Source of the DNA: Pseudomonas phage EL
DNA length: 64,000 nt
Sequence record: AJ697969.1
Reading direction: 5' to 3' (one strand)
Shown: one piece after another, positions 6,775-52,667 of the stretch
Numbering within the stretch: the first letter of the stretch is position 1
How the letters are laid out: every line of letters starts with the position of its first letter
Translations under genes and position numbers: made by a program
Notes under the pieces: generated by a model
Databases searched by the model: none
What the model saw: the letters and a program-made list of their open reading frames with translations, nothing else
What the model was told of the DNA's origin: nothing

Positions 6775-7279
6775 TTTTCGTCGCTCCCCCAATGGGTTTG
6801 TGAACGCAAAGCTGACGGATGCGGAGATGACAGAGGCCTTTACCAACCTCAATCTCCTCCGGAAGGATGCGTACAGTGATTTCGAATTGGTCATCAAAGG
6901 TCATGTGGCCATTGAAACCATTCGGGATGTCAGTCGGCTGGTGGGTCCCAGTTTCCGTCAGTTTATGGAAGCCAACTACGACAGTGGCCGTGGACCTATT
7001 GCAGGGTTGATCAAAGACATTGTTCATTACCTCAATGGGCGTATGGGTCACCACTCGCTGATTACGTCGCTCCGTATTGAAGAGCGTAAACTCCTGAGTG
7101 CGTCGAAAGTGCGTAAAGCGACCTACCGTCAAACCCAAACCACGGGCAGTCCGCTTCCGCTCCTGGAAGACGACTACATCGTCCACGACTACGATCTCTA
7201 TCGCCTAATGTCCGGTATCAGTCCTTCCAATGTAGGGCGGACCTTGTTGCTACTGGGCGGTGAGAATTACTACAGCTGA
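6767..7279 (+). CDS. hypothetical protein, 170 aa
   Basis: Start moved to the ATG at 6767 (MNSFRR...), which overlaps the upstream stop and is preceded by GAGAGA. The longer ORF-track start at 6674 would overlap the previous gene by 100 nt. Confidence 0.6.
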   Translation: MNSFRRSPNGFVNAKLTDAEMTEAFTNLNLLRKDAYSDFELVIKGHVAIETIRDVSRLVGPSFRQFMEANYDSGRGPIAGLIKDIVHYLNGRMGHHSLITSLRIEERKLLSASKVRKATYRQTQTTGSPLPLLEDDYIVHDYDLYRLMSGISPSNVGRTLLLLGGENYYS

Positions 7280-7301
7280 CCCTTAGGTGGAGAAGAGTGC
7301 A

Positions 7302-19717: not shown

Positions 19718-20066
19718 GTAATTTATCACTTAATGTATTTATTGTATTGTAAACTGGCTGACAAGCGGGTGGGGAAAGGGGTTTATTTCCTAATAAAGAG
19801 TGGAGTAGTTACGGAGTAACTACGACTTCCTTGTTCTATCTTTTGATCTTTCTCTATTCTCTTTAGATCTTTCTTTTGATTTATACGGAATACAGAGAGG
19901 GAAGAGAGGGAATACCCCTTATACCCCCGAAAAAAAGGGGGGATGAGGAATAAGGAGAGAGAACCGTAGGTTAATCAGTATTCCAACACGTTCTGATTAA
20001 TACATTCAGCAAGCAGAGCTGAGAAGATTGCTCTGCCATTACCGATTCACTACCGGAGTAACTACC
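19718..20066. promoter_or_regulatory. repeat-rich noncoding region between the structural block and the small-gene module
   Basis: No ORF with start signals. Contains a 60-nt polypyrimidine tract followed by the purine mirror AGAGAGGGAAGAGAGGGA, hairpins GTAGTTAC-GGA-GTAACTAC and CCCCCG-A7-GGGGGG, a TTAATCAG-N15-CTGATTAA inverted repeat, and a 12-nt direct repeat CGGAGTAACTAC at 19812 and 20054. Confidence 0.4.
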
Positions 20067-20312
20067 ATGACTGGGGATTTCGACCATCTCAGTAACCGTC
20101 AACTGGCAGACTTACTGGCGGGTTACCATTTGTACGGCACTAAGCGGACGAGCGAGATACCCGGGCCTGTAATGCTCAAACTCATCCGAAAACGCCTCCG
20201 GGCAACTGAACCTCTACCTGATATCATTCCCTGTCTCGACGACGGCAAAGACGAACGTGTGCTCGGTCTGTTTGGTGAACGCATCACGGTTAAAGGAAAA
20301 GAAAAACAATGA
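20067..20312 (+). CDS. hypothetical protein, 81 aa
   Basis: ATG at 20067 preceded by GGAGTAA. Confidence 0.55.
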   Translation: MTGDFDHLSNRQLADLLAGYHLYGTKRTSEIPGPVMLKLIRKRLRATEPLPDIIPCLDDGKDERVLGLFGERITVKGKEKQ

Positions 20313-21981: not shown

Positions 21982-21990
21982 CGTGACATA

Positions 21991-22026
21991 CCCCTACCCC
22001 CTAGCGCTCAGGCTAGGGGGTAGGGG
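21991..22026. terminator. bidirectional hairpin, CCCCTACCCCCTAGC/GCTAGGGGGTAGGGG
   Basis: A 15-bp perfect stem between convergent genes 21622-21981(+) and 22047-23579(-). Confidence 0.6.
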
Positions 22027-22046
22027 GTCTATTATTCATTTTGTCT

Positions 22047-26458: not shown

Positions 26459-26535
26459 GTCCTGCGAATTACGGGCGGCTTGAGTATCCCGAGTTGCCCT
26501 AGTAGGTACCTCACGGAAATTGCGTGTACCATTAG

Positions 26536-26569: not shown

Positions 26570-26605
26570 TTATATTTGCAGTTATACCGTTTATTGGAAT
26601 ATTTT

Positions 26606-26617
26606 AAACCTACATTA
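26606..26617 (+). promoter_or_regulatory. candidate phage promoter motif, AAACCTACATTA
   Basis: Located 37 nt after the terminator hairpin and 74 nt before the ATG at 26691. The flank TATTTTAAACCTAsATTAT is shared with 39605-39625. Confidence 0.3.
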
Positions 26618-26690
26618 TCCTTGGGTACAAGACAATAGGTTATCTGACCGCGCACCAGATGATCTTGACACTAACTTGAGGATCCTCACC

Positions 26691-31842: not shown

Positions 31843-31879
31843 ATACTTGATTTAATCGCGATTGAATTAAAACTATTAA

Positions 31880-31909
31880 CCTACCCTAGTGGATCTCCAC
31901 TAGGGTAGG
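31880..31909 (+). terminator. intrinsic terminator, CCTACCCTAGTGGA-TC-TCCACTAGGGTAGG plus a T-rich tail
   Basis: A 14-bp perfect stem followed by TATTCCTTATTGGTTTATTTATTT. Confidence 0.65.
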
Positions 31910-32040
31910 TATTCCTTATTGGTTTATTTATTTAACTTACAGTTATTTTCAGATCTAAATAATCAGGGTGAATAGCAACAATCCTATTAATTGTTAACTG
32001 TTTTACTCCCCATTTCCTACACACGAACGAGGATTCACAC

Positions 32041-32397
32041 ATGACCACTTCCAATGACAAAGCCAAAACCACCAACAAGTCCTTCACCGGTGAGCGCAAG
32101 GAAGGTTTCGCAGCCACAACTGTCGCCGGGATCGTCGGAGGCGTCCTGGGTGCCGCCGCCCATTTCAATGGCACCAAAAACATCGGTTCGTCCCTGATCG
32201 CCGGTGCGGCCGGTGTGACCGTCGGTTGGGCGGCGGGTCGTCTGGTGTCCCCTGTTCAACACCTCGGTACGCCAGCTACCATTCTGGGTAGTGCCTGGTC
32301 GGGTCTGCTCGGTGCGTCGATCGCCATCACCGCGGGTGAACTGGCTGGTTCGGTAATGGGTGCTGCCCAAGAAGCCCTGCCGAGCGCCGGCGAGTAA
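32041..32397 (+). CDS. glycine-zipper small membrane protein, 118 aa, very highly expressed
   Basis: Three Gly/Ala-rich hydrophobic segments with GxxxG repeats (VAGIVGGVLGAAAHF; IAGAAGVTVGWAAG; LLGASIAITAGELAG). E. coli-optimal codons. An AT-rich about 120-nt leader follows the terminator, with a GAGGA RBS. Confidence 0.6.
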   Translation: MTTSNDKAKTTNKSFTGERKEGFAATTVAGIVGGVLGAAAHFNGTKNIGSSLIAGAAGVTVGWAAGRLVSPVQHLGTPATILGSAWSGLLGASIAITAGELAGSVMGAAQEALPSAGE

Positions 32398-32471
32398 GTT
32401 CTGCCCCAAGGAGAAGGTTATCCCTTCTCCTCTTCTTTTCAGTAACCCGCTCAGCCAGGAAGGTGTTTATT

Positions 32472-32636
32472 ATGAAATCCAGCGGCCTGCTTCTTCTGTG
32501 CGTTGGTGTTATGTTCGGCTTCTTGTTCGTGAACGCGAACTACGGCCAAGAGACTCAGGAAGATGAATCCCAAGAAGTGATCTTGGGACATCGTATTGCT
32601 CCTAACGGGCAAGAAATCCTGGTCTACCAACACTGA
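32472..32636 (+). CDS. signal-peptide/TM mini-protein, 54 aa
   Basis: Not in the ORF track because it is under 60 aa. Sequence MKSSGLLLLCVGVMFGFLFVNA|NYGQETQEDESQEVILGHRIAPNGQEILVYQH. AGGAAGG lies 9 nt before the ATG. High-GC3 codons like the gene upstream. A terminator-like hairpin follows at about 32650-32700. Confidence 0.45.
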   Translation: MKSSGLLLLCVGVMFGFLFVNANYGQETQEDESQEVILGHRIAPNGQEILVYQH

Positions 32637-32726
32637 AGAACCCACCCCCCGCTTCCTTGTCCTGTTTAAGAGGGATGAGGAGGCGGGTTCTTTACGTCTC
32701 TTTCATTTTTCACATAGGGAAATACC

Positions 32727-38939: not shown

Positions 38940-38945
38940 GTTTAC

Positions 38946-39021
38946 TCCGTGATAGCTCAGTAGGTAGAGCAACTGTTTCGTAAACAGTAGGTCCCGGGTT
39001 CGAACCCTGGTCACGGAACCA
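38946..39021 (+). tRNA. tRNA-Thr(CGU), 76 nt, CCA encoded
   Basis: Manual cloverleaf: acceptor TCCGTGA/TCACGGA; D-arm GCTC-AGTAGGTA-GAGC; anticodon stem ACTGT/ACAGT with loop TTCGTAA (U33, anticodon CGT, A37); 5-nt variable loop; T-arm CCGGG-TTCGAAC-CCTGG (one G-U pair); discriminator A; CCA. Confidence 0.85.
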
Positions 39022-39164
39022 AACATCGTTACCCCAAAGACTGGGACACACATGCTCGGCACCACCCTCCCCCAGATGCCCTGCGCCGTCCCGCTCCGCC
39101 AGCCATCCTGTTCTCTTCTCTCTTCCAGGGTGGACCGCGGCTTCTTGACAGGGGTGACGGTGTA

Positions 39165-39201
39165 CCTGTTCCCTACCTTTCTCAGAGGGGTGGGGAACAG
39201 G
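39165..39201 (+). terminator. hairpin, CCTGTTCCC...GGGAACAGG plus ACCTTTTCTTTATCC
   Basis: A 9-bp stem with a long loop and a T-rich tail, 145 nt downstream of the tRNA. Confidence 0.45.
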
Positions 39202-39238
39202 ACCTTTTCTTTATCCGCTATGTGCAGAGGATACCGTC

Positions 39239-39535
39239 ATGTCGTTCATTATAAAGGTCATGCGAGAGGACTGTGGGAATGGCACCTCCCGTGACTATGA
39301 AGGCATTATTGTGGGTCAGGGGGATCGGTTTGCTATCTCTTGGGATCCGCATAAAGAACAGCGGGAGCTCACGGTCGAGTTTGCTGATGGGAGAACCTTG
39401 CTCCGGGTGATTGATGGGGATCTTTACGTGGTGAATGCGGACGGTAAGACCATTTCCGGTACCCTCAAGAATAAGCCCTTGCTCCCCGGTACTTCCCACT
39501 CGAACCCCCGAGACAAACTCTCTTCTAAGCTCTAA
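39239..39535 (+). CDS. hypothetical protein, 98 aa
   Basis: ORF followed by a terminator hairpin at 39557. Confidence 0.5.
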   Translation: MSFIIKVMREDCGNGTSRDYEGIIVGQGDRFAISWDPHKEQRELTVEFADGRTLLRVIDGDLYVVNADGKTISGTLKNKPLLPGTSHSNPRDKLSSKL

Positions 39536-39556
39536 CCCGTAAACACCGTGTAAACA

Positions 39557-39589
39557 CCCTCCTACCTCCTTTACAGGGAGGTAGGAGGG
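39557..39589 (+). terminator. intrinsic terminator, CCCTCCTACCTCC-TTTACA-GGGAGGTAGGAGGG plus TTTATTAC
   Basis: A 13-bp stem. The downstream TTTATTAC and TATTTTAAACCTAGATTAT motifs follow. Confidence 0.6.
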
Positions 39590-39612
39590 TTTATTACGGT
39601 ATAGCGTATTTT

Positions 39613-39624
39613 AAACCTAGATTA
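39613..39624 (+). promoter_or_regulatory. candidate phage promoter motif, AAACCTAGATTA
   Basis: Located 24 nt after the hairpin and 31 nt before the ATG at 39655. Same extended motif as 26601-26620. Confidence 0.3.
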
Positions 39625-39654
39625 TTGATGCGTTAAGCCACGAGGAATAAATCA

Positions 39655-42354: not shown

Positions 42355-42365
42355 GGACGTCAATC

Positions 42366-42611
42366 ATGGCTAAAAAGAACCTTAAGGTGTTCAAGACCCA
42401 CGGGGAATTCGATACGGAGGTGATTCGTCGTGCTCGACTTATCCTCGACGCCAGGGGTTACCGGGGGAAGATATGTGTGAACGCACTCGGTGAAAGTTCT
42501 GCGTGGAATAAAGCAGATCGCAATGAGGACGGTCATCGTCTGATCGACGACGACACTATCGCCGAAGTGGCTCGCTCGATGGTTTACGACACTCTCGATT
42601 ACGGAGAGTAA
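42366..42611 (+). CDS. hypothetical protein, 81 aa
   Basis: ORF 11 nt after the previous stop. Confidence 0.5.
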   Translation: MAKKNLKVFKTHGEFDTEVIRRARLILDARGYRGKICVNALGESSAWNKADRNEDGHRLIDDDTIAEVARSMVYDTLDYGE

Positions 42612-42639
42612 GTTTTAACACGTTGACCGTATTATATAC

Positions 42640-42900
42640 GGACAACATGTCGTTTTAATCCGCGTCTGCGGGTCCCGCCTGAACTTAAGGGTGATAAGGT
42701 GTGGTACTCGTCGAGTATGAGCTTGGCAAAACTCATACTCCGAACCCTATGGACGGTATAGCCGCTATCGTCAAGTCACACTGTTGAGCTATTGACCTGG
42801 ACTTCAGTCTCCTTTTCGGTGCTGTCGGCGGGAAGGTTCTCGGACGGTGAGGCGGCTTGTGAAGGTGCTAAACTAGCGCTGGTTGAACACCTAGCAAGTT
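42640..42900 (+). ncRNA. candidate structured noncoding RNA (uncharacterised)
   Basis: A 450-nt gap with no ORF that has start signals. Multiple perfect hairpins (GAGTATGAG-N10-CTCATACTC; CGTAT-tat-ATACG; CCGC-GTCT-GCGG). It ends in a strong intrinsic terminator. Confidence 0.2.
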
Positions 42901-42902
42901 AA

Positions 42903-42970
42903 GGGGAGGAGGGACAGCCATCGGCTCTAAGCAGATGGGTTCCTCCTCCCCTCGCTCCTTTTATTTTTTT
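42903..42970 (+). terminator. strong intrinsic terminator, GGGGAGGAGG...CCTCCTCCCC plus CCTTTTATTTTTTTTG
   Basis: A 10-bp GC outer stem and an inner CCATC/GATGG stem, followed by a 14-nt T-rich tract. Confidence 0.75.
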
Positions 42971-43540: not shown

Positions 43541-43551
43541 CACTGAATAAA

Positions 43552-43594
43552 CCCCTAACCCCTAGCCCCTTTAACAGGGCTAGGGGTTAGGGGG
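43552..43594. terminator. bidirectional hairpin, CCCCTAACCCCTAGCCCC-TTTAACA-GGGCTAGGGGTTAGGGGG
   Basis: An 18-bp stem between the convergent genes 43064-43540(+) and 43613-46585(-). Confidence 0.65.
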
Positions 43595-43612
43595 TATAAC
43601 ATTTATTTTTGA

Positions 43613-50934: not shown

Positions 50935-51509
50935 AGCCCTCTGATAGTGTACGGGTCTTAGCCATAGATCCGTCCACTACCTGTATGGGGGTGAGTGTCT
51001 TCGACATCAATATTGCTAAAGCTGAACCGTTTAAGTTGATTTACGCGAACACGATCTTTGGTAATAAGTTGTTGTTTGACATTCCAGCACAATTTGATGA
51101 TCGCGCGGACACTGGTATTGCGGCAAGAAGTTACGGTATGGCGCGCAGTTTAAGTCAACTGTTAGCTATCTTCGAACCCGACAGTGGGATCTGTGAGGAT
51201 AACTTCCTCGGTATGTCTCCGCTTACATTTAAGCAGTTGATTCAAGTGGTCTCCTTGTTACGTGAAACCTTCGTTACCCACGGTATTCATTTGTCGTATC
51301 TCCTCCCTCGTTTAGCTAAAGCCGTGGTGGGTGCAGATTTCAGTGGGAGTAAGAAGGAGGATGTTCATAAAGGGGTGATGGACTATCCGTGGTTAGACGC
51401 CGGCGAGATTGATTTGACGGTTCTGGATGAACACTCCGCTGACAGTGTCGCTATCGGCCTCTATCGGTGTGAGCAGATCGCCCGGCATTACGGTGTCTCA
51501 GAGAGGTGA
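50919..51509 (+). CDS. RuvC-like Holliday-junction resolvase (RNase H-fold endonuclease), 196 aa
   Basis: N-terminal VRVLAIDPSTTCMGVSVFD matches the RuvC LGIDPGxxxxGxAV catalytic-Asp motif. Later ICEDNFLGMSP and a C-terminal HSADSVAIGL (RuvC DAADALAIA-like) complete an acidic tetrad. Confidence 0.5.
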   Translation: MLCVLKPSDSVRVLAIDPSTTCMGVSVFDINIAKAEPFKLIYANTIFGNKLLFDIPAQFDDRADTGIAARSYGMARSLSQLLAIFEPDSGICEDNFLGMSPLTFKQLIQVVSLLRETFVTHGIHLSYLLPRLAKAVVGADFSGSKKEDVHKGVMDYPWLDAGEIDLTVLDEHSADSVAIGLYRCEQIARHYGVSER

Positions 51510-51514
51510 ACGTA

Positions 51515-51885
51515 TGACTGAAACAACTCAAGACGATGACCCAGAGCTACCCGCCAATTCTCCTCCTGTTGAAGGAGGAGTGGAACGGGAGATCTTTGGT
51601 AAATGGAAAGTATTGTTGATTAACCTCGGTGGTATCCTTTCCGTGTTGGTGGTGTGTTTAACGGCACTGATTAACTCGTTTACTATTTACCTGTCAGTAA
51701 CCACCAATGGTAAATGGCCCAGTGAGATGAGTATGTTCATCATGATGGTGGGGCCGGTGATCTGTGCATGGGGGTGGATGAACGTTAACGGTACCTTAAA
51801 GACTATTATGTCTCAATCGGGGTTTAGTAACAAAATGAGAACCAAGGTGGCTGAGATCATTGCGCCTAAGCCCAAGACAGAATAA
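51515..51885 (+). CDS. small membrane protein with two TM segments, 123 aa (holin-like topology; speculative)
   Basis: ATG at 51515 preceded by GAGAGGTG. TM segments VLLINLGGILSVLVVCLTALI and SMFIMMVGPVICAWGWM. Converges on the spanin genes. Confidence 0.45.
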
Positions 51886-51946: not shown

Positions 51947-52396
51947 TCATTCAGGTAGAGCTAAACTCTCAATTAACACATTGATGTTATCAATCAACTG
52001 TGAAATGGTACGCTGGCTGGCGTATAACTTCATGTTGCTGTCATCCAACGCCCGGGTCGTATTGATCAGCAGTACCCGGGTAACTCGATAACAGAGCTCT
52101 CGTGCCTCCCGAGAGGGTTTCTCCAAGCAGTCATACTCCAGCAGAAAGGTCGTTAAACTACTTAACTGACTAGGAGGCATCTCCGCGGGTGGGTTCTTGA
52201 GTTGAGGGAGCACTTGGGTCAGCCTTTCCTGAGCTGCCAGGACTTGCTTCCGGTACGTGTTGATCCTTACTTGCTCCGCTTGAACCTGGAGGATTGAGTT
52301 GGTCTCGGACAGTTTGGGATTGTTGCTGCATCCCACTAGGATCAGGGATACTAGACAGATTAACATCCACCCCATACTTTTCAAGTAGTTTTGCAT
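51947..52396 (-). CDS. o-spanin candidate (outer-membrane lipoprotein), 149 aa
   Basis: Signal peptide with the lipobox LILVG|C (MGWMLICLVSLILVGCSNNPK). It starts inside the i-spanin gene in another frame and extends 223 nt beyond it, an overlapped Rz/Rz1-type arrangement. Confidence 0.5.
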   Translation of the reverse strand: MQNYLKSMGWMLICLVSLILVGCSNNPKLSETNSILQVQAEQVRINTYRKQVLAAQERLTQVLPQLKNPPAEMPPSQLSSLTTFLLEYDCLEKPSREARELCYRVTRVLLINTTRALDDSNMKLYASQRTISQLIDNINVLIESLALPE

Positions 52397-52631
52397 AGCC
52401 TGAGTTGTCCTCTTCAGTTCGCTGTTCCAACTGACGGGCGAGGGTTTGAGTCAAGGCGGCTGTGGCATTGGAATTGTTTTCCATGTTGTCAGCCACCCGT
52501 TGCAACTGGTTGGTAACGCGCTGAATCCCATTAACCGCTTCTACACTGATAGTGGGGTTACGTGGCACAATAGCCTGCCACGCGACAACCGCCAGAATCA
52601 ATATTAGAACCACGTCTCTAATCCATGTCAT
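52170..52631 (-). CDS. i-spanin candidate (type II inner-membrane protein), 153 aa
   Basis: Start at the ATG at 52631 (MTWIRDVVLILILAVVAWQAIV, an N-terminal TM) with a TAGGAGGAT RBS 5 nt upstream. Periplasmic coiled coil followed by a Pro/Ser-rich C-terminus. Confidence 0.5.
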   Translation of the reverse strand: MTWIRDVVLILILAVVAWQAIVPRNPTISVEAVNGIQRVTNQLQRVADNMENNSNATAALTQTLARQLEQRTEEDNSGYAKLLEKYGVDVNLSSIPDPSGMQQQSQTVRDQLNPPGSSGASKDQHVPEASPGSSGKADPSAPSTQEPTRGDAS

Positions 52632-52667
52632 AATGGATCCTCCTAACGGTATTGGGTTCATAACAGG

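Follow-up and report, generated by a model that had tools for sequence, protein, structure and literature searches.

Two small, predicted envelope proteins of separate gene families behind a probable early promoter in Pseudomonas phage EL

We analysed a stretch of 64,000 nucleotides (nt) from the giant Pseudomonas phage EL (AJ697969.1; the window in the following) with a focus on two small neighbouring open reading frames (ORFs), ORF1, which encodes a predicted inner-membrane protein of 118 amino acids (aa), and ORF2, which encodes a signal-peptide-like mini-protein of 54 aa. Homologue searches and gene order show that these are two independent gene families and not a conserved pair. Furthermore, a conserved promoter element accompanies the ORF1 family in one and the same genomic slot across relatives whose proteins share only 27-41% identity, and the phiKZ member of the ORF2 family is an immediate-early, highly transcribed gene. 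For the region as a whole, we see about even chances that it forms one transcription unit whose two products are directed to the host envelope early in infection and do not serve lysis at the end of the cycle. The features of this unit are as follows (window coordinates):

31879-31910, plus strand: upstream terminator, a perfect GC-rich stem of 14 base pairs (bp; 8 GC) with a 4-nt loop and a ATTCCTTATT tail
31931-31963, plus strand: promoter-like element of 33 nt, TTTAACTTACAGTTATTTTCAGATCTAAATAAT, with the -10-like core TCTAAATAAT at 31954-31963
31964-32040, plus strand: leader (5' untranslated region) with the Shine-Dalgarno sequence GAGGA at 32029-32033, 7 nt 5' of the ORF1 ATG
32041-32397, plus strand: ORF1, 118 aa, predicted inner-membrane protein
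32409-32431, plus strand: inter-ORF hairpin, a 9-bp stem followed by CTTCTTTTC (-14.1 kcal/mol, z = -3.1)
32457-32463, plus strand: Shine-Dalgarno sequence AGGAAGG of ORF2, 8 nt 5' of the ATG at 32472
32472-32636, plus strand: ORF2, 54 aa, signal-peptide-like mini-protein
32648-32687, plus strand: closing terminator, strong, with 16 pairs (-29.5 kcal/mol, z = -5.1)

Both genes are already present in databases as hypothetical proteins, and ORF2, which a preliminary description of this DNA had taken for a missed gene, is annotated in public relatives and is a member of phrog_15989. New are the delineation of the ORF1 family with its fixed slot, the near-invariant promoter that marks this family, the link between ORF2 and the most highly transcribed early gene of the phiKZ left end (gp1-gp23), and the evidence against a conserved pair or a lysis cassette. 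The finding falls into the wide group of small phage proteins of the envelope that are made early, and we regard it as solid but moderate. Nucleus-forming jumbo phages are heavily studied, while their early membrane functions (vesicle handling, exclusion, lysis inhibition) are poorly known. ORF2 is predicted to be periplasmic, and for this compartment we did not find an early jumbo-phage function assigned in the literature. Besides, ORF1 and ORF2 are small and easy to delete or express, and the 33-nt element is a practical marker for finding genes of the ORF1 family and for studying promoter recognition by the phage polymerases.

Two gene families that meet in Elvirus

A stretch of about 6 kilobases (kb) round the locus is 97-98.5% identical to eight Pseudomonas phages of ~210 kb, among them phiRU (98.5% identity over 6 kb), MIZ-Pa99 and HHBS8_1, and the ORF1 product is 100% identical to the EL protein Q2Z0Z9. 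By these matches, the window is that of an Elvirus (EL/RU-like), a giant phage of the phiKZ-related nucleus-forming group (chimallivirus). Counting from two anchors, EL gp79 (cited in the Miami annotation) and EL gp99 (the PhiKZ014 homologue, phrog_16056), ORF1 would be EL gp82 and ORF2 EL gp83. The local order runs from the major head protein over a 383-aa gene, a non-virion RNA polymerase subunit (phrog_2943) and a 781-aa gene (phrog_13213) to ORF1 and ORF2; 3' of ORF2 follow ~11 kb of small genes and then the convergent gene of a 1000-aa virion protein.

The earlier impression that neither gene has an obvious counterpart did not hold, as homologues exist for both. For ORF1, a word-indexed protein search matched the Elvirus copies only, and scans of Pfam, PHROGs and PADLOC gave nothing significant. 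An exhaustive phmmer search of 1.84 billion representatives added 13 further proteins of 105-129 aa with the same layout (E 6e-11 to 5.6e-4); the long repeat proteins P0007, P0011, P0013 and P0017 in the same list were discarded as unrelated on inspection. The contigs of these relatives are jumbo-phage-like and keep the order of head protein (PF25620), ~378-aa, ~550-aa and ~780-aa genes and ORF1 homologue. The same slot is filled by gp87 in the Erwinia phage RisingSun and by three tandem glycine-zipper proteins, gp41-gp43, in the Klebsiella phage Miami. Scored with the family profile, Miami gp43 reaches 34.8 bits and gp42 19.8 bits versus at most 7.9 bits in 200 shuffles. RisingSun gp87 is unsupported by the profile (9.9 bits versus a shuffle maximum of 12.5); it agrees in slot, size, MTTSN start and promoter, and we count it with the family on position and promoter alone. 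In a Foldseek search of viral models (BFVD), EL itself came first and then a Miami protein (probability 1.0), followed by weaker matches in Vibrio phages 2 TSL-2019, Aphrodite1 and VP4B and in Edwardsiella phage pEt-SU, whereas annotated holins appeared only at E > 1; against the PDB, Foldseek gave no match with E < 4. With ORF1, RisingSun gp87 or Miami gp43 as query, tblastn found no match across phage genera, and the cross-genus links rest on phmmer, profile scoring, Foldseek, gene order and the promoter. By these comparisons EL Q2Z0Z9, Miami gp42/gp43 and the proteins of uncultured chimalliviruses form one family with homology beyond composition, a shared slot and a shared upstream element.

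Like ORF1, Miami gp41/gp42/gp43, RisingSun gp87 (phrog_34416) and the uncultured relatives (P0002-P0024) follow the major head gene, a ~380-aa gene, the polymerase subunit gene and the ~780-aa gene and stand 5' of the convergent ~1000-aa virion gene, and they share its size, its polar N-terminus (often MT...) and three Gly/Ala-rich helices. Unlike EL, Miami carries three tandem copies (L011 9969-11461), the first with an extra ~100-aa N-terminal domain, which points to amplification of the ORF1-family gene in Miami-type phages. A further difference concerns the relation of the two genes: Miami, RisingSun and the uncultured relatives have no ORF2 homologue beside their ORF1 counterpart. The ORF1 family thus stands without ORF2 in every other lineage examined, and the ORF2 family stands without ORF1 in phiKZ-like phages, in whose genomes tblastn found no ORF1 homologue; phiKZ gp125, which occupies the ORF1 slot there, proved unrelated. 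The two-gene module put forward in the preliminary description is thus not a conserved one. Since the hosts of the ORF1 family span several genera (Pseudomonas and Klebsiella, with Erwinia via the positional RisingSun counterpart), a general membrane role or a phage-internal role is suggested.

The ORF1 protein contains 17% Gly and 19% Ala. Its N-terminus is polar and net positive, three hydrophobic stretches follow, and the C-terminus is acidic; the last 19 residues (ELAGSVMGAAQEALPSAGE) are free of basic residues and have a net charge of -3. The Kyte-Doolittle maxima of the three stretches (19-residue windows) are 1.64, 1.33 and 1.39. AlphaFold2, run with 20 family sequences, places helices at residues 25-45, 48-75 and 77-112 (predicted local distance difference test, pLDDT, 69.5); the core from about residue 20 to 113 (94 residues) holds six charged residues, and the modelled helices almost none. 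The three hydrophobic segments described previously are therefore well founded, while their GxxxG richness is marginal in ORF1 itself, with six pairs versus 3.1 expected from shuffles (p = 0.055); it is clearer in most relatives, 13 of the 23 family members analysed having more GxxxG pairs than shuffles (p <= 0.01). One comparator is the class I holin lambda S105, which is likewise small, with three modestly hydrophobic helices and glycine-zipper-type packing motifs. Its Kyte-Doolittle maximum is 1.61, so that the marginal hydrophobicity of ORF1 is no argument against membrane insertion; a summed Hessa-scale estimate for ORF1 was dropped, as a real holin also came out as non-inserting. We regard ORF1 as likely to be a multi-helix inner-membrane protein, with the N-terminus predicted inside and the C-terminus outside.

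Comparable Gly/Ala-rich helices with small-xxx-small spacing occur in the Pfam families PF13488 (Gly-zipper_Omp), PF05433 (Glycine zipper 2TM) and PF13441 (YMGG). These are mostly two-helix domains of outer-membrane lipoproteins, whereas ORF1 has three helices and neither signal peptide nor lipobox. ORF1 matched none of the three families at E <= 1, its only Pfam match being a sub-threshold one to the unrelated Podoplanin family, and a Pfam scan of 20 family members gave only sub-threshold matches to glycine-zipper (1-2 of the 20), TraT and MccV entries, which we judged to be compositional. On the opposite strand, a 124-aa ORF (32035-32409, minus strand) covers ORF1 fully; because homologues, ribosome-binding site and promoter all favour the plus strand, we interpret it as a shadow ORF of the Gly/Ala-rich frame.

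ORF2 matches phrog_15989 with E = 4.2e-28 over residues 4-54. Homologues were found by tblastn in 69 Pseudomonas phage records, which comprise the eight Elvirus genomes and phiKZ-like phages; ORF2 is 49% identical to PHIKZ010.1 over 98% of its length and 56% identical to its counterpart in phage Bobae. Beyond the giant Pseudomonas phages, no relatives were found among 5.8 billion proteins (the word-indexed search returned Elvirus copies only). The family is thus limited to giant phages of two genera, which all infect Pseudomonas and mostly P. aeruginosa; this suggests a host-specific target. We place the start at ATG 32472, as homologues begin with MK and a GTG nine bases upstream overlaps the ribosome-binding site. 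The alignment contains 20 invariant columns, including LGHRI, PNG and LV, and in the members a hydrophobic N-terminus of variable sequence, closed by the conserved F(V/I)NA, is joined through a likewise variable linker to the near-invariant V(I/V)LGHRI(A/G)PNG(Q/V)E(I/M)LV; the conserved hairpin motif of ORF2, VILGHRIAPNGQEILV, lies at nt 32577-32624.

A signal peptide or membrane helix followed by an acidic tail had already been noticed in ORF2, and this holds. Residues 1-22 are signal-peptide-like: the second residue is Lys, a hydrophobic stretch of 15-17 residues follows (Kyte-Doolittle maximum of 2.14 in the N-terminal helix), and VNA stands at the end; the remainder of the protein is acidic. 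The V/I-N-A at residues 20-22 is kept in all three ORF2 sequence types and agrees with the (-3, -1) rule, so that signal peptidase I may plausibly cut here. Cleavage would free a periplasmic peptide of ~30 residues, the alternative being a signal anchor. AlphaFold2 on the single sequence gives a helix at 4-24 and a beta-hairpin at 37-42/48-53, with pLDDT >90 in parts. PHIKZ010.1 agrees with ORF2 in length class, in the hydrophobic N-terminus ending in F(V/I)NA and in the invariant LGHRI-PNG-E-LV hairpin. In contrast to ORF2, it is flanked by gp10 and gp11 in the early region at the left end of phiKZ, is served by an early promoter of its own and has no glycine-zipper neighbour, whereas ORF2 follows ORF1 and lacks a separate promoter. 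Within the family, only EL has a linker that is strongly acidic (net about -6).

Promoter, terminators and expression of the unit

The AT-rich leader of the preliminary description (31843-32040, 67% A+T) turned out to hold a conserved phage promoter-like element. In EL, RisingSun and two metagenomic lineages, the block TTTAA(C/G)TTA(C/T)A-N4-(A/T)TTTCA(A/G)(A/G)TCTA(A/T)AT(A/T)A(C/T) exceeds the proteins in conservation. As the degenerate pattern TTTAASTTAYANNNNWTTTCARRTCTAWATWAY, it is found exactly 5' of the ORF1 homologues in seven fetched loci (L001, L004, L006-L010); the element is exact in RisingSun and in metagenomic relatives, and a diverged copy precedes the first of the three tandem Miami paralogues. 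A scan of 2.9 million IMG/VR contigs with the 33-nt pattern returned eight stretches, of which L021 is a 10.8-kb fragment that duplicates the L020 site, while the other seven lie on contigs of 105-235 kb. Where downstream sequence is available, the element lies 54-75 nt 5' of an ORF1-family gene or of the RisingSun positional counterpart in six of seven cases; of the remaining stretches, one lies 5' of a different gene and one runs off the contig end. A second copy of the 33-nt variant at L018 284-316 (IMG/VR contig 3300046536_000256, 233 kb) precedes an unrelated gene (MNSQIERPVYELALEATIEALK...), which argues for a promoter type and not for a gene-specific leader. Altogether, the element behaves as a promoter variant that is tightly tied to, and almost specific for, the ORF1 family.

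A sigma-70 scan reads part of the same region as CTTACA-16-AATAAT (31936-31963). This reading was set aside in favour of a phage promoter, as the region has fewer such matches than shuffles and phiKZ is reported to transcribe its genes without the host machinery (PMC8244752), which we assume for EL as well. In one metagenomic lineage (L004 7774-7905; L005, L006, L020, L021), an ORF of 43 aa whose product has one hydrophobic helix (MSYLLRRFADACGAPILGIAIGFGLYYGFKYLG...) lies directly 5' of the ORF1-type promoter; by its sequence it would be a second mini membrane protein beside the ORF1 family, unrelated to ORF1.

For the temporal class of the promoter, comparison within the window and with phiKZ is informative. 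The core (C/T)CTANAT(A/T)A(C/T) has only four copies in the window, all intergenic and on the plus strand, and two of these carry the longer motif TATTTTAAACCTANATTAT, exact at 26600-26618 and 39607-39625 (0.04 expected by chance) and in both cases just 3' of a GC-rich terminator. The copy at 26600 precedes the operon of the 383-aa gene, the polymerase subunit and the 781-aa gene and is kept at the matching place in RisingSun, Miami and metagenomic loci, its phiKZ equivalent being TCTATATTAC 5' of gp121; the copy at 39607 precedes the gene just 5' of the PhiKZ014 homologue. TATTTTAAACCTANATTAT is probably the Elvirus early-promoter consensus, and the core of the ORF1 promoter is related to it. 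In phiKZ, gp5, gp6, gp10 and gp10.1 are each preceded by ATTCAAAC..TTTAAACAGTATATTAC, and the ORF1 core resembles TTTAAACAGTATATTAC. The RNA-seq source data of Gerovac et al. (2024) give values in the hundreds to thousands of units for gp5-gp23 by 2 min, while gp1-gp4 (L002 164-2103) stay at <30 units through the first 10 min; gp1-gp4 are without the early motif, and its first copy lies 5' of gp5. In these data PHIKZ010.1 rises from 0 to 2361 and 7311 units at -2, 2 and 10 min and is top among the listed gp1-gp23. For gp121-125 the values climb steadily from 2 to 10 min, while those of the capsid gene show no change and those of the holin gene gp142 stay near 14.

Early promoters of the phiKZ type are AT-rich and conserved round -10, -20 and -30 (PMC11512511; PMC8244752), and according to the literature they are read by the injected virion polymerase. 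The ORF1 promoter shares with them an AT-rich -10-like block, TAnAT(T/A)A(C/T), a T-tract ~14-16 nt 5' of the end of this block and a further conserved block upstream, and it differs as a distinct sub-variant, TTTCARRTCTAWATWAY, with TTTAASTTAYA in front. Because of its likeness to the EL and phiKZ early motifs, and because the phiKZ genes with this motif are on at 2 min, we assign the ORF1 promoter with moderate confidence to the early class read by the virion RNA polymerase.

The unit is bounded by hairpins on both sides. The upstream one is as perfect as had been described; its folding energy is -27.2 kcal/mol (z = -6.4), which none of the shuffles reached, and it ends the operon of the 383-aa gene, the polymerase subunit and the 781-aa gene. 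It resembles the phiKZ terminator class, in which a hairpin is followed by TTAT (PMC10914365), and a hairpin is present at the matching position in RisingSun, Miami and L007. Transcription would start a few nt 3' of 31963. The first ~15 nt of the leader (AGGGTGAATA) are kept in relatives, and RNA structure in the leader is not significant (folding z = -0.6). Between the two ORFs, the hairpin at 32409-32431 would act as a weak (leaky) terminator or attenuator; in relatives, a strong terminator stands directly 3' of the ORF1 homologue. Since no promoter-like motif was found in the 74-nt gap between the ORFs (32398-32471), ORF2 in EL must rely on read-through of the weak hairpin.

The strong expression proposed earlier is probable, though one of the arguments used for it had to be replaced. 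The G+C content at third codon positions (GC3) is ordinary, with 0.65 for ORF1 (z = +1.5) and 0.59 for ORF2 (z = +0.4) versus a mean of 0.57 +/- 0.05 over the 54 ORFs of the window, and the 62% GC of ORF1 stems from its Gly/Ala codons (GC2, the value for second positions, = 0.60). As GC3 does not single out ORF1 or ORF2, we dropped it as an expression proxy and ranked the 54 ORFs by a codon index with the major capsid gene as reference. On this scale a codon bias linked to expression is evident: ORF1 is third (0.650, z = +2.8) and ORF2 fourth (0.553, z = +1.6), the latter rank being noisy with only 54 codons. In this capsid-like codon use, 75% of Gly codons are GGT and 78% of Leu codons CTG, compared with 74% and 68% in the capsid gene and 39% and 33% in the window on average. 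The other top-ranked genes encode an internal head protein, a virion protein and the PhiKZ014 homologue, so the index appears to track abundant products. Together with the conserved promoter and the good ribosome-binding sites of both genes, which had been recognized before, this capsid-like codon choice indicates that the terminator-bounded unit is probably strongly expressed, which is in line with the high early mRNA level of the phiKZ homologue of ORF2.

A proposed early envelope function and the alternatives

In the explanation that we favour, the region would be a single unit in the order terminator, phage promoter, ORF1, leaky hairpin, ORF2, terminator, with the virion RNA polymerase reading the ORF1 promoter early in infection. 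ORF1 would be made in bulk and insert into the inner membrane as a three-helix bundle, with its basic juxtamembrane motif (GERKEG) remaining cytoplasmic and its acidic C-terminus reaching the periplasm, and would oligomerise via its small-residue (GxxxG) faces. ORF2 would be translated from the read-through transcripts, exported by Sec and cleaved after VNA, and its beta-hairpin would bind an envelope or periplasmic partner of P. aeruginosa by beta-strand pairing. The purpose, on which we can only speculate, may be an early conditioning of the host envelope, e.g. blocking or sensing a secondary infection or altering membrane permeability or energisation.

Several points weigh against this explanation. 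The envelope role follows from localisation and timing only, and none of the families of known function in Pfam, PHROGs, PADLOC, PDB or BFVD matches ORF1 or ORF2. The ORF1 helices are marginally hydrophobic, as only the first reaches the classical Kyte-Doolittle cut-off. The early-class call is based on motif similarity and on expression data that come from phiKZ and not from EL, and the ORF1 promoter departs from the canonical EL early motif at several positions. Besides, the promoter that lies nearest to the gene of the homologous polymerase subunit in 201phi2-1 was assigned to the late class (PMC11512511), which means that gene context alone does not fix timing.

A more specific function in the same compartment would be superinfection exclusion, with ORF2, alone or together with ORF1, acting as an early periplasmic peptide that blocks DNA entry or receptor function in the manner of T4 Imm/Sp or T5 Llp. 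The predicted export of ORF2 and the immediate, high-level transcription of its phiKZ homologue would suit such a role, as would the restriction of the family to giant Pseudomonas phages, which fits a host-specific envelope target. However, neither sequence nor fold resembles known exclusion proteins, and the ORF1 family occupies a core slot in phages with hosts of different genera, which is unusual for exclusion genes. We consider exclusion by ORF2 rather unlikely.

The preliminary description had named a holin/antiholin or lysis-timing pair first among its candidates. In such a pair, ORF1 would be a three-helix holin forming lethal holes by its glycine zippers and ORF2 a periplasmic regulator like T4 RI. 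T4 RI combines a signal-like N-terminus with a small periplasmic part, an architecture that ORF2 recalls, and T4 rI is expressed early. ORF1 itself is holin-like in size, helix number and hydrophobicity, and its weak, non-significant BFVD matches (all E > 1) are enriched in annotated holins. Moreover, tblastn found no homologue of the phiKZ holin gp142 in Elvirus genomes, which leaves EL without an assigned holin, and lysis inhibition or pseudolysogeny after multiple infection is common to phiKZ and EL (PMC7909554; PMC12894885). On the other hand, the promoter of ORF1 is probably of the early class, and in phiKZ the ORF2 homologue PHIKZ010.1 is on at 2 min, whereas gp142 remains near background through 10 min. 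The C-terminus of ORF1 is short and net negative, where a charged basic tail is typical of holins. In spite of their general likeness, lambda S105 and ORF1 have no significant match in sequence or fold and opposite predicted topologies (N-in with acidic C-out in ORF1), and unlike class I holin genes ORF1 has a probably early promoter and does not stand beside endolysin or spanin genes; the spanins are 20 kb away on the other strand, and a 152-aa ORF next to them is the better positional candidate. In phiKZ, the holin is gp142, as demonstrated by lambda S-amber complementation and triggering with dinitrophenol, and its regulator is gp143 (PMC12894885). Both are unrelated to ORF1 and ORF2, so that phiKZ possesses an ORF2 homologue and yet an unrelated holin, and outside Elvirus ORF1 and ORF2 do not co-occur. 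In view of these data, a lysis function of the pair is improbable.

The spanin genes form an overlapping pair on the minus strand (51947-52661), about 20 kb from the unit as previously noted: an i-spanin of 163 aa with an N-terminal membrane helix (52170-52661) and an o-spanin of 149 aa with the lipobox LVGC (51947-52396). Unlike in the phiKZ cassette gp141-144, no endolysin gene was found beside them. The 152-aa ORF (51427-51885, plus strand; phrog_14084) has two hydrophobic segments, is convergent with the spanins and overlaps the end of a RuvC-like gene; it is a candidate for the EL holin by position and has no similarity to phiKZ gp142.

That ORF1 is not an inner-membrane protein at all and instead an abundant soluble or self-assembling Ala/Gly-rich helical protein, e.g. 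virion-internal or scaffold-like, seems to us a poor prospect: its marginal hydrophobicity, a codon index adjoining those of capsid and internal head proteins and its place in a largely structural region would agree with this, whereas the few charges in its hydrophobic core are atypical for a soluble protein, its hydrophobicity equals that of a proven three-helix holin, its promoter is probably early, and the main text of the RisingSun paper, with its table of lysate mass spectrometry, nowhere names gp87, although small hydrophobic proteins easily escape this method.

Finally, a bolder reading can be imagined. The ORF1 family may be an abundant, early, self-inserting glycine-zipper channel in the membrane of the early phage infection vesicle. 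If so, the channel would perforate or remodel this lipid vesicle round the injected genome in nucleus-forming phages of the EL, RisingSun and Miami type and could give early mRNA a way out or pass the genome on into the protein shell as this forms. More modestly, the family of ORF2 and phiKZ gp10.1 may be the missing periplasmic sensor of multiplicity-dependent lysis inhibition or pseudolysogeny in the giant P. aeruginosa phages. The channel is weakened by the fact that tblastn found no ORF1 homologue in phiKZ-like genomes, since such vesicles were first described in phiKZ, and we rate the two proposals, taken together, as a long shot.

Further features of the window

Many intergenic, GC-rich perfect hairpins with CCTACCC...GGGTAGG arms are present, e.g. 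at 705-758, 21982-22046, 26459-26530 and 43541-43612. These hairpins would represent a phage-type terminator family similar to the conserved terminator motif described for phiKZ (PMC10914365).

Four stretches of 512-715 nt are without an ORF of at least 100 aa in the gene list, namely 38940-39654, 42355-42934, 19718-20308 and 6775-7286, and they may hold small genes or non-coding RNAs. By gene count, EL gp96 and gp97 should lie in the first of them (38940-39654).

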